Source: Escherichia phage T2
Length of the DNA: 64,000 bases
Strand: one strand, 5' to 3'
Sequence record: NC_054931.1
Shown: piece by piece, positions 11,155 through 63,987 of the stretch
Position numbering within the stretch: position 1 is the stretch's first letter
Layout of the letters: each line of letters opens with the position of its first letter
Notes under the pieces: model-generated
Told to the model about the DNA's origin: nothing
The model's input: only the letters and a program-made list of their open reading frames with translations
Databases searched by the model: none
Program-made: the position numbers and the translations under genes

Positions 11155-11772
11155 TCAACTACCTCAATATCATAAACTTTAAGTGTTCCAAATGAATCGT
11201 GTAATTTTTCTTTTGAAATAGAAGTTATTCTATACTTTCCAATTGGAATCATCCATTCTTGTTCACGCACAATCATCATTAAGTTATCAGTACGCTCTGA
11301 ATCTAGCCCATCAGTATCTTCATACGTGTACTTAAACTCAGTATTAGGAGAAGAAAGTATAATATCGCATATGGTCAGAATAATTAAAAGCTTTATCAGT
11401 TTTTAAGCGAAATATTATTTCAGTGAAATACTCAACATAAGAAAAACCACATGCTGTGTGCAAACTGGTAGTAAATGAATCTACTCTGTTCGTTGAAAAC
11501 ACTTCTCCAACTTGTAAATCTTTAATAAGTTCTTTTGTTGATTTTGATATACCACGATATAACTGATAAGGTGATTTAGTTAAATGCTTTTTAATGATTT
11601 TATTCAATTGCCGATGAAGAGCTTCATTCTTTTTGGCTTCCATACATTGCCAAAGAACTGACTGTTCAAAGTCAGTAAATTTTTCACAAACCTTTTTATA
11701 CATATCATATTGAAAATCAACGCTTTCAGCTTTTATAGATAACTGTTCAACATCTGCAAGATTAATAATCAT
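11151..11772 (-). pseudogene. modB: ModB-like ADP-ribosyltransferase interrupted by a +1 frameshift
   Basis: N-terminal 142-aa ORF has LYRG and SFTTS; catalytic EQEWMIP lies in shifted frame ending in ATGA overlap with modA; span is 3n+1. Confidence 0.55.
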
Positions 11773-18035: not shown

Positions 18036-18392
18036 TTAACCTCTATTCATAAAAGCATTAAAAATTTGGTCATCAATAGATGGTGCAGTAATATTTTCTG
18101 TATCATTTAGCAAATCATTAATTTCATCAGATAGCATAACACATGTACCTTTATTTCCTGTAATTGTTACTGCACAATTACGAACGTTTTCTTTATTAAA
18201 TTTTAGGTTAATATTTTCGTAATGAAAATCCTTTAATGCTGAATATATTTTTAAAATAAAATTATCTTTTACTACAATAAACCCAACCTCACTATTAAAA
18301 CGTGGTTCATGGAAACTGTAATAAACCTTTTCATCTATAAAATCGTATGAAATTTTTTCCATTTTTAAATATGAAAATTCAGAACTATGCAT
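18036..18392 (-). CDS. hypothetical protein
   Basis: 118-aa ORF. Confidence 0.4.
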   Translation of the reverse strand: MHSSEFSYLKMEKISYDFIDEKVYYSFHEPRFNSEVGFIVVKDNFILKIYSALKDFHYENINLKFNKENVRNCAVTITGNKGTCVMLSDEINDLLNDTENITAPSIDDQIFNAFMNRG

Positions 18393-18420
18393 ACTAACCT
18401 CTAATTATTCACCTACCACT

Positions 18421-58021: not shown

Positions 58022-58234
58022 TCATTTCGGTTTACCTTCTTTAACGAAATCTGGATAAGGATAAAATCCCGAATAAAATCCTTCACCTTTATGATTGATG
58101 CATCCTTTATTAGAACAATAGCACCAATAATCGAAATCACAAACCATTTCATCGTTGCATAAAGCAAAAACAACCGGCCATTTACACTTTTCGCAGTGGG
58201 CATTTTTAAGAATACTAGTTTGGCTCATAACCAT
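58022..58234 (-). CDS. small cysteine-rich protein (putative zinc binding)
   Basis: 70-aa ORF with CEKCKW...CNDEMVCDFDYWCYCSNKGC. Confidence 0.35.
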   Translation of the reverse strand: MVMSQTSILKNAHCEKCKWPVVFALCNDEMVCDFDYWCYCSNKGCINHKGEGFYSGFYPYPDFVKEGKPK

Positions 58235-58452
58235 GTCACCTTTAAGCAGTATTCTTCTACATGCTGTTTACGACCTTTCTTATCAATAAAGGTATATTCA
58301 ACGAATGTTCCAATGTAGTCTTTATCTACATCATGTGGACTATTAATTGGGCATTTAGTACGACAAATGCGTTCCCATTGACGAATAATTACTGCCTTAT
58401 TATTTGGGTCATATGGATGTGGATAATGTATATTCATAATAATGGTTCCCAA
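58225..58452 (-). CDS. hypothetical protein
   Basis: 75-aa ORF. Confidence 0.3.
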   Translation of the reverse strand: MGTIIMNIHYPHPYDPNNKAVIIRQWERICRTKCPINSPHDVDKDYIGTFVEYTFIDKKGRKQHVEEYCLKVTWL

Positions 58453-58901
58453 TCAACAATCACAATTTCTAATTTAGAGGAATATGTATCTAAAATCCCC
58501 TCAATAATATCCCAGTTCCCTTTACCTATGCCTGCGCCAATCCTAGGCATATAGATTGTAGGTTTAATCAGTTTATTTTCACCAAACTCATTTAATTCTA
58601 ACATACAATTCATTAAAGCGGAATACTCAAAATTTGGCCCTGGTTGAAATTGAGTATAAAGATTAAAGCAGTAAGCTTTATGAGTCCTAAAGTATTTTTC
58701 ATAGACTGAGTAAGAACCGAGTTTAGTTACATCACCCCATTCAGTCTGTAATTTATCAGCTTCCAAAATTTTAGGGAAAGCTTTGGTTAATTGACCCGCT
58801 ACGCCTGAACCCATAGTATGAAAACAATTACATCCATGCGCAATATTTTTACCTTCAGCGAAAAGGGCGACAATATCGCCCTTGATATATTTTACAATCA
58901 T
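58434..58901 (-). CDS. macro-domain protein (ADP-ribose binding/hydrolase fold)
   Basis: 155-aa ORF; N-terminal GDIVALFAEGKNIAHGCNCFHTMGSGVAGQL and later glycine-rich IGAGIGKG typical of macro domains. Confidence 0.55.
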   Translation of the reverse strand: MIVKYIKGDIVALFAEGKNIAHGCNCFHTMGSGVAGQLTKAFPKILEADKLQTEWGDVTKLGSYSVYEKYFRTHKAYCFNLYTQFQPGPNFEYSALMNCMLELNEFGENKLIKPTIYMPRIGAGIGKGNWDIIEGILDTYSSKLEIVIVDWEPLL

Positions 58902-59245
58902 CTAGTACTCAATCCTCGATTATAAGAATCTACCAAACGGTCAACCATTGAATGACAAGCGGCTTTATCTTTCTCCTCCGCAACTGAACATTCTAAGGTA
59001 TTCCACTTTTTAGCATATCGTTTTAATAATGTATCGTTTTTGTATCTGCTTGATTTATCTCTTTCTCCGTCTTTATATGCATATATTAATTTCTGAGCAA
59101 ATTCCGCCTGGCATGCTTTATTTTTCCCACAATAATCTGCCGCAGTGCGGTTTACATATTCTCTAATTTCAGTATATGATGTATCTGCTGACGCAGAAGC
59201 AGAAAATGAAATTAATCCTATACATAAAACCAAAATTTTAGTCAT
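58898..59245 (-). CDS. secreted protein (signal peptide)
   Basis: 115-aa ORF MTKILVLCIGLISFSASASA. Confidence 0.4.
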   Translation of the reverse strand: MTKILVLCIGLISFSASASADTSYTEIREYVNRTAADYCGKNKACQAEFAQKLIYAYKDGERDKSSRYKNDTLLKRYAKKWNTLECSVAEEKDKAACHSMVDRLVDSYNRGLSTR

Positions 59246-60279: not shown

Positions 60280-60309
60280 ATTATACCACAGTCAAGAGGA
60301 AAAGTAAAC
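60280..60309 (-). promoter_or_regulatory. T4-type early promoter upstream of regB
   Basis: attata 60280-60285, 18-bp spacer, gtaaac 60304-60309. Confidence 0.5.

Positions 60310-63000: not shown

Positions 63001-63987
<987 letters not shown>

Follow-up and report, generated by a model that had tools for sequence, protein, structure and literature searches.

Between the vs and tk genes of Escherichia phage T2 lies a small reading frame whose product resembles a macrodomain, and its presence raises the question of which ADP-ribose mark such a protein would recognise or remove during infection: one made by the ADP-ribosyltransferases of the phage itself, or one deposited by a host defence. The initial annotation of the 64,000-nucleotide stretch of T2 DNA analysed here (NC_054931.1; hereafter the window) had entertained both answers, proposing a macro-domain eraser or reader that pairs with phage-encoded writers or that counters host ADP-ribosylating defences.

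DarT2, the toxin of the DarTG2 system, transfers ADP-ribose onto thymidine of single-stranded phage DNA and thereby blocks replication. Phages T2 and T4 devoid of adfN still resist DarTG2, from which a further anti-DarTG2 factor had been predicted earlier (PMC11825919). A November 2025 preprint screened T4 transposon mutants by HIDEN-SEQ on a host expressing DarTG2 and obtained tk.4 as the single significant hit, with a depletion reported as specific to the presence of DarTG2; T4 with a clean knockout of the gene became susceptible to DarTG2, and the authors gave tk.4 the new name adfM (anti-DarT factor, Macrodomain) (10.1101/2025.11.20.689424). The same authors describe T4 Tk.4 as structurally similar to M. 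tuberculosis DarG, and go no further than 'seems likely' on the enzymatic removal of ADP-ribose from DNA (10.1101/2025.11.20.689424). In cells infected with T2, a 2026 preprint found Tk.4 protein and also captured tk.4 mRNA with the host sRNA ArcZ, under the erroneous label 'putative thymidine kinase' (10.64898/2026.06.19.733364). Our searches of the available literature turned up neither a biochemical test of Tk.4 from either phage nor a knockout of tk.4 in T2, and the CmdTAC paper (PMC11618068) mentions no role for a T4 macrodomain.

Identity and genomic context of tk.4

The open reading frame under study begins with ATG, encodes 155 aa and, with its stop codon counted in, exactly fills the interval given for tk.4 in Table 1. 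The initial annotation had advised a comparison with the tk-vs interval of T4; in tblastn, the T2 product matches T4 Tk.4 (X04567, ORF 60.5) along its whole length of 155 aa with 100% identity. Residue 36 is polymorphic among T4 stocks, being either Ser or Gly (PMC8573959), and is Gly in T2. The 2.1-kb stretch surrounding the gene shows 100% DNA identity with several Escherichia phage T2 genomes, and T2 records name the genes of the minus-strand run in which it sits as regB, vs.1, vs, tk.4, tk.3, two small ORFs, tk.2, tk.1 and tk. The position between vs and tk.3 is that seen in annotated T2 and T4-like records, both phages belonging to the genus Tequatrovirus. In sequence and in genomic position alike, this reading frame is the T2 orthologue of T4 tk.4/adfM.

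Both ends of tk.4 overlap the adjacent gene by an ATGA tetranucleotide (Table 1), an arrangement that suggests co-transcription and translational coupling of regB-vs.1-vs-tk.4-tk.3. Pfam searches on the neighbouring genes returned RegB, an SLT-type transglycosylase (vs.1), DUF7202 (tk.3) and a phage zinc-binding protein, and identified no ADP-ribosyltransferase among vs, vs.1, regB, tk.3 and the zinc-binding protein. A scan for promoter consensus sequences yielded three sites matching at 10 of 12 positions, one of which precedes regB and is a weak candidate that could perhaps control the regB-vs.1-vs-tk.4 run. Promoter-like sites are about as numerous around the gene (23) as expected from shuffled sequence (21.1), so the scan provides no real evidence on transcription. 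A G+C-rich 9-bp hairpin spanning tk.4 codons 7-13 resembles a terminator when read on the opposite strand; it was rejected as a real structure, the z-score of the mRNA fold (-1.2) being not significant.

Table 1. Coordinates of tk.4, its overlaps with adjacent genes, a candidate promoter and the predicted active-site elements in the window.
Feature	Position	Strand	Description and basis
tk.4 (= adfM) CDS	58434..58901	minus	155 aa, single predicted macro domain; ORF, Pfam and AlphaFold2
ATGA overlap, tk.4 start/vs stop	58898..58901	minus	Sequence, ORF ends and annotated CDS ends
ATGA overlap, tk.4 stop/tk.3 start	58434..58437	minus	Sequence, ORF ends and annotated CDS ends
Candidate early promoter before regB	60280..60308	minus	TTTACT-17-TATAAT with TG upstream; 10/12 consensus match
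H-G-C-N-C, codons 22-26	58824..58838	minus	Asn25 is the conserved macrodomain Asn; Gly23 at the position of SCO6735 Val25
MGSGVAG, codons 30-36	58794..58814	minus	First Gly-rich, substrate-binding loop of the macro fold
N-L-Y-T-Q, codons 80-84	58650..58664	minus	Gln84 at the catalytic-Lys position (DarG K80, TARG1 K84); read from DNA
PRIGAGIGKG, codons 119-128	58518..58547	minus	Second Gly-rich, phosphate-binding loop; read directly from DNA

Macrodomain assignment and predicted fold

The macro-domain call made by the initial annotation for this reading frame was borne out by profile, sequence and structure comparisons. Tk.4 scores 27.7 bits against the Pfam Macro family PF01661 (gathering cut-off 22; E = 2.9e-6), with residues 22-132 covering positions 2-113 of the 118 in the profile. 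It also matches PHROG 335 (E = 1.3e-65) and, when used as a sequence query, PDB macrodomains (best E = 1.3e-9), so that a chance resemblance can be dismissed. The hallmarks that had been noticed in the N-terminal region and in a later glycine-rich loop are both present, the former as IKGD (residues 6-9), HGCNC (residues 22-26) and MGSGVAGQ (residues 30-37), and the latter as PRIGAGIGKG. An AlphaFold2 model, computed from an alignment with 54 relatives, reached a mean pLDDT of 93.8 and a pTM of 0.90, and has the three-layer alpha/beta architecture of macrodomains, in which two glycine-rich loops line the cleft for ADP-ribose. Judged by its profile match and predicted structure, Tk.4 is a member of the macrodomain superfamily (PF01661).

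Foldseek searches of the PDB with this model ranked TARG1, Poa1p, BT1257 and DarG first (E = 7.5e-10 to 3e-7), with TARG1 at the top, followed after a gap by coronavirus macrodomains (13.6) and MacroD-type enzymes (10-12.5). These nearest structural neighbours place the predicted fold in the ALC1-like class (TARG1/DarG/Poa1p/SCO6735), rather than with MacroD, macroH2A or PARG, and MacroD/YmdB, the comparator originally put forward, is consequently not the appropriate one. Existing database labels for the gene and its homologues vary: one T2 GenBank record describes tk.4 as 'Tk.4; contains A1pp phosphatase motif', and homologues appear in other records as 'macro domain protein', 'Poa1p-like family protein' or 'phosphatase'.

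A glutamine in place of the catalytic lysine

Profile alignments with hhalign place Thr83-Gln84 of Tk.4 on the Thr-Lys pair of DarG (K80) and TARG1 (K84). In a joint MAFFT alignment, the Gln84 column contains K in TARG1, DarG and PhiKZ gp104, and Q in BT1257. Asn25 aligns with the corresponding Asn of DarG, with Asn23 of PhiKZ gp104 and with Asn27 of BT1257/SCO6735, while the MGSGVAG stretch aligns with MGAGIA in TARG1 and MGKGVA in DarG. Both hhalign and MAFFT set Gly126 of Tk.4 on the catalytic Asp125 of TARG1, and this position is occupied by A or G across all relatives of Tk.4.

Conservation of this predicted site is nearly complete. Gln84 is kept in 118/118 database relatives and in 140/140 further cluster representatives (258/258 overall), Asn25 in 117/118 and 140/140 (257/258), and Gly23 in 117/118 and 139/140. 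In the first glycine-rich loop Gly33 and Ala35 are invariant in relatives, as are P119, I121, G122 and G124 in the second. The conserved binding residues expected of a macrodomain by the initial annotation are hence in place, and Asn25, Gln84 and both glycine-rich loops persist in 257-258 of 258 relatives, down to ~35% identity. Such near-perfect conservation of the active-site signature points to an enzyme, that is, an eraser, as more likely than a mere reader. The family has in addition its own invariant residues, Gly23, Cys26, Asp49 and Tyr82; in the alignments, we found no counterparts of Asp49, Cys26 and Tyr82 in DarG, SCO6735 or BT1257.

The substitution of the lysine by glutamine has a characterised precedent in SCO6735, which is devoid of the catalytic residues of DarG and TARG1, cleaves ADP-ribose from thymidine, though not from guanosine, in DNA, does so faster than DarG, and rescues E. 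coli from DarT (PMC9411070). Changing its Gln85 to Ala or Glu abolished activity completely, and the N27S change did so almost completely; the model advanced by the authors is water-initiated and lysine-independent, in which the Gln places the distal ribose while the water is held by the main-chain carbonyl of Val25 (PMC9411070). In the PDB sequence of SCO6735, this Gln lies in the motif ANMIGQ (chain residue 105, corresponding to native Gln85) and the Asn is chain residue 47 (native Asn27). As the lysine is replaced in Tk.4 by an invariant Gln84, at a position where Gln is essential in SCO6735, lysine-independent hydrolysis appears the most likely chemistry. The lysine that DarG and TARG1 need is missing from Tk.4, an observation that taken by itself speaks against Tk.4 protecting the phage by hydrolysis.

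Proposed function and alternative explanations

Taking the genetics of T4 together with the conserved site, we consider it probable that T2 Tk.4 is AdfM and guards the phage from DarTG2, most likely through SCO6735-like hydrolysis of thymidine-linked ADP-ribose. The DarTG2 phenotype of adfM was measured in T4 only and the T2 copy is identical in sequence, so that the T2 protein would be expected to do the same job; the DarTG2 resistance kept by T2 devoid of adfN is consistent with this (PMC11825919). Under this model, Tk.4 would be produced during infection as a free-standing 155-aa macrodomain and would hold, between its two glycine-rich loops, the ADP-ribose that DarT2 attaches to thymidine N3 of single-stranded DNA. 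It would then hydrolyse the bond between thymine N3 and the ribose, releasing free ADP-ribose, restoring the base and leaving the DNA replicable, by a lysine-independent route assisted by a Gln84 held by Asn25 in the arrangement of SCO6735/BT1257. The suggestion that a macro domain might counter host ADP-ribosylating defences agrees with the genetics reported for T4 tk.4/adfM and DarTG2 (10.1101/2025.11.20.689424).

The other original suggestion, that the marks erased by Tk.4 are those which the phage itself sets, through Alt, ModA and ModB, on RNA polymerase and translation factors of the host or on RNA, we regard as highly improbable. Where the initial annotation counted at least two or three ADP-ribosyltransferase genes in the window, two are annotated in its 64 kb (modA and modB), and not three, because alt falls outside. 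With an E-value limit of 0.01, neither ModA nor the truncated ModB gave a Pfam match, and GenBank annotation is the basis for identifying them. The two genes lie ~47 kb from tk.4, with no linkage to it, and modB carries in this T2 sequence a 2-bp deletion (near 11360) that cuts its product to 142 aa. A second indel affects the nudE stop (near 63530), and both may be either strain variants or sequencing errors. Alt, ModA and ModB modify arginine, and we know of no cleavage of arginine-linked ADP-ribose by the TARG1/DarG/SCO6735 class. The linkages on record for this class, the nearest to Tk.4, are instead those to the thymidine or uridine base and the Glu/Asp ester (PMC9411070, PMC13036486). 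Arginine-specific macrodomains do exist, Legionella MavL being cited as such in PMC13036486, and SCO6735 and TARG1 also take off Glu/Asp-linked ADP-ribose from proteins (PMC9411070); against a role in erasing the phage's own marks, however, T4 tk.4 was reportedly depleted specifically in the presence of DarTG2 (10.1101/2025.11.20.689424). With modA and modB so distant, modB frameshifted and alt absent from the window, we found no link between tk.4 and the phage ADP-ribosyltransferases, and the pairing of a phage writer with a phage eraser is unsupported.

Two further explanations concern the activity of the protein rather than the origin of the mark. Tk.4 could be an ADP-ribose-1''-phosphate phosphatase or another small-molecule hydrolase, acting on Appr1p, O-acetyl-ADP-ribose or cyclic ADP-ribose immune signals, in line with the general argument of Iyer et al., for whom small ADP-ribose derivatives are the targets of most phage macrodomains (PMC9503650). 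Names of this kind surround the family ('phosphatase' for PHROG 335, 'A1pp phosphatase motif' in GenBank, 'O-acetyl-ADP-ribose deacetylase' for JGI homologues), and Tk.4 has the H-x-C-N-C motif of Poa1p, with His22 on the Poa1p His23 that is mutated in PDB 6lfs. These labels are nonetheless inherited names and not assays, and we discarded 'phosphatase' as a description of Tk.4 after tracing it to PHROG 335 and to the old A1pp/Poa1p nomenclature, with no assay behind it. Poa1p, moreover, has Ser and not Gln at position 84, and the sole phenotype known for tk.4 is DarTG2 sensitivity. The repair of tRNA in T4, carried out by Pnkp and Rnl1, is not known to yield Appr>p. We therefore judge a primary role as small-molecule hydrolase quite unlikely, although such an activity could coexist with de-ADP-ribosylation of DNA. 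Non-catalytic protection, in which Tk.4 would act as a reader or decoy, binding to DarT2 to block the toxin or to the modified DNA to shield the lesion, is conceivable, since DarT is still inhibited in vitro by the inactive variants SCO6735 Q85A, DarG K80A and TARG1 K84A, with SCO6735 the strongest of the three (PMC9411070). The absence of the canonical Lys from Tk.4 would suit such a role, but the retention of Asn25, Gln84 and both glycine-rich loops in virtually every relative is the pattern of an active enzyme, and the C-terminal DarT-binding domain of DarG has no counterpart in the 155 aa of Tk.4, making this explanation highly unlikely in our view.

A more far-reaching possibility, and a quite improbable one, is that the Tk.4 family represents a third type of catalysis in the TARG1/DarG class, built on Gln84 together with the family-specific invariant Asp49, Cys26 and Tyr82 and a short loop, and that its members would be broad erasers of N3-linked pyrimidine marks (thymidine in DNA, uridine in RNA) that, in T-even phages, could additionally trim those of Alt, ModA and ModB. 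If true, this would amount to a genuine viral writer/eraser circuit extending beyond counter-defence.

Distribution and significance

Homologues of Tk.4 were enumerated at two scales. In tblastn searches, the Tk.4 family was found in 2,749 of 50,697 phage records, among them those of Straboviridae, FelixO1-like and Ackermannviridae-like phages and of myoviruses of Pseudomonas and Vibrio. When 1.84 billion cluster representatives (clustered at 50% identity) were searched with a profile, 17,696 of them matched at E <= 1e-3, and 1,231 did so at E <= 1e-30. This wide spread fits the published figure of ~41% for the share of myoviruses with a macro domain (PMC9503650).

The gene itself is already known: annotations have listed its macro (A1pp) domain for a long time and a role has been published for the identical T4 protein, and for this reason the T2 finding brings no new biology of its own. 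It illustrates how T-even phages accumulate enzymes that counter defences based on the ADP-ribosylation of DNA, with AdfA and AdfN directed at DarTG1 and Tk.4/AdfM at DarTG2. The fresh point is that the predicted site of T-even AdfM appears to be of a Gln type, like that of SCO6735, and distinct from the Lys-type sites of DarG and PhiKZ AdfM. The split between Gln-type and Lys-type sites matters for the design of catalytic mutants and inhibitors, and for the annotation rules applied to phage macrodomains.

Comparison with known macrodomains

DarG is the only match to Tk.4 in the NCBIfam and PADLOC defence libraries, and this match is confined to its N-terminal macro part, Tk.4 spanning positions 2-146 of 338 in the NCBIfam profile and 2-145 of 329 in that of PADLOC. 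By sequence, the similarity is weak (E = 5e-4 to 6e-3). DarG of T. aquaticus and M. tuberculosis (PDB 5M31/5M3E/5M3I) has an FPTK motif with the catalytic K80, whereas Tk.4 has LYTQ, and neither a C-terminal DarT-binding domain in Tk.4 nor an adjacent darT gene was found by profile searches and inspection of the neighbouring genes. We accordingly rejected the identification of Tk.4 as DarG, for which the NCBIfam NF048014 equivalog score is 30.3 bits against a cut-off of 250, and for which the Lys, the C-terminal domain and the darT neighbour are all lacking.

Gp104 of phage PhiKZ, independently named AdfM, has been shown biochemically to strip DarT2-made ADP-ribose from a DNA oligonucleotide, and loses this activity in the N23A mutant (PMC13309987). 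The gp104 protein, obtained by translating the sequence printed in that paper, matches M. tuberculosis DarG with E = 9.4e-25 and carries the FPTK motif, making it a true DarG-type macrodomain. BLASTP aligns just 23 residues between Tk.4 and this DarG-type protein, and the equation of the two at the subfamily level was dismissed. The one name AdfM therefore covers two macrodomain subgroups, the Gln-type Tk.4 of T4 and T2 and the Lys-type gp104 of PhiKZ.

Human TARG1/OARD1 (PDB 4J5R) is similar in size to Tk.4 and has the same short loop, with nine residues from the Gln of Tk.4 to a conserved Tyr. TARG1 removes thymidine- and uridine-linked ADP-ribose (PMC13036486), and its Lys84/Asp125 dyad is replaced by Gln84/Gly126 in Tk.4, where Asn25 in turn takes the place of a Ser. 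Yeast Poa1p, an ADP-ribose-1''-phosphate phosphatase (PDB 6LFQ-6LFU), shares the H-x-C-N-C motif and differs in having a Ser at the Gln84 position and, unlike Tk.4, a long insertion ahead of the second glycine-rich loop. The His22 match to Poa1p His23 is accompanied by a conservative change of Ser30 to Thr29 in Tk.4, His23 and Ser30 being the residues mutated in PDB 6lfs/6lft.

The closest parallels in working are SCO6735 of Streptomyces coelicolor and BT1257 of Bacteroides (PDB 5E3B, 2FG1/2AFC), both Gln-type proteins of the ALC1-like class. All three have a Gln at the catalytic-Lys position and a supporting Asn, and the TARG1-type Asp is absent from Tk.4 as it is from SCO6735 and BT1257. Identity between Tk.4 and these two proteins is, however, only ~26-29%, and Tk.4 is phage-borne where they are cellular. 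The stretch following the Gln reads QFQPGPNFEY in Tk.4 against QHGMKTGSKGAPVRYE in SCO6735, whose mobile loop is five residues longer and contains Lys89 and Lys94; BT1257 likewise requires a 6-residue insertion after the Gln in its profile alignment to Tk.4. The authors of the SCO6735 study linked this lysine-bearing loop to DNA processivity (PMC9411070), and since the longer loop is missing in Tk.4, the analogy with SCO6735 is a partial one. The invariance of Gly23, Cys26, Asp49 and Tyr82 is also a trait of the Tk.4 family that SCO6735 and BT1257 do not share. With the Gln/Asn pair in common, and the loop and the invariant residues differing, Tk.4 is best filed as probably SCO6735-like in its working, within what appears to be a separate and mostly phage-borne subfamily.

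Genes and a stem-loop around tk.4

Features located in the window around tk.4 and in genes linked to ADP-ribose
Feature	Position	Strand	Remarks
Zinc-binding ORF, 70 aa, Cys-rich	58022..58234	-	Downstream of tk.4; 'Phage zinc binding domain', PF23895, E = 2.4e-29
tk.3, 70 aa	58225..58437	-	Downstream of tk.4; DUF7202, E = 6.9e-38
Tk.4 Tyr82	58656..58658		Codon
Tk.4 Asp49	58755..58757		Codon
Tk.4 Cys26	58824..58826		Codon
Tk.4 Gly23	58833..58835		Codon
G+C-rich 9-bp stem-loop	58863..58883		AAGGGCGAC...GTCGCCCTT; tk.4 codons 7-13
vs, valyl-tRNA synthetase modifier	58898..59245	-	Upstream of tk.4; start/stop overlap
modB, ADP-ribosyltransferase gene	11344..11772	-	2-bp deletion near 11360
61.2, 118-aa ORF	~18038..18394	-	T2 record annotation
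nudE + lysozyme e joint ORF	63001..63987	-	Deletion near 63530

The gene encoding the macro-domain protein Tk.4 is tightly packed among its neighbors, with the start and stop codons of tk.3 and of the zinc-binding ORF overlapping those of the adjoining genes, and its adjacency to vs is kept in most of the T4-like records seen. A Pfam search with the vs product returned no match; in a transposon screen of T4, vs is reported as the gene with the strongest depletion in minimal medium (HIDEN-SEQ preprint, 10.1101/2025.11.20.689424). Shortly 3' of the tk.4 start codon, the stem-loop stands out from A+T-rich surroundings and, on the opposite strand, scores as terminator-like. Folding of an 81-nt mRNA stretch at this stem-loop yielded no significant result (z = -1.2). 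The host sRNA ArcZ is reported to be captured together with tk.4 mRNA on Hfq (2026 preprint, 10.64898/2026.06.19.733364).

Altered reading frames in the source record

Comparison with T2 record MH751506.1 revealed that 2 bp are missing from modB in the window (CCATACATGCG in the reference, CCATATGCG here), leaving a frame of 142 aa versus 207 that stops short of the protein's C-terminal part. Stock variation or an error in sequencing the source record accounts for the missing bases. A 1-nt deletion within a T-run (CTCTTTTAA to CTCTTTAA) abolishes the stop codon of nudE and generates a single 328-aa ORF that joins NudE to lysozyme e and carries both Pfam domains; the deletion is likely to be a variant or an error at the homopolymer. 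According to its annotation, the Nudix protein NudE acts on ADP-ribose, and any free ADP-ribose that Tk.4 releases could in principle serve as its substrate.

We take 61.2 to be the T4 gene encoding the anti-DarTG1 factor AdfA. Because T2 is stated to naturally lack an adfA homologue (PMC11825919), the ORF annotated as 61.2 in T2 may be a truncated remnant.

Family-specific residues of Tk.4

Four Tk.4 residues, Gly23, Cys26, Asp49 and Tyr82, are invariant or near-invariant among 258 Tk.4-family proteins. None of them is present in DarG, TARG1 and BT1257, and SCO6735 matches BT1257 (Val, Asp, Ile) at three of these four positions, those that were read from the SCO6735 sequence.
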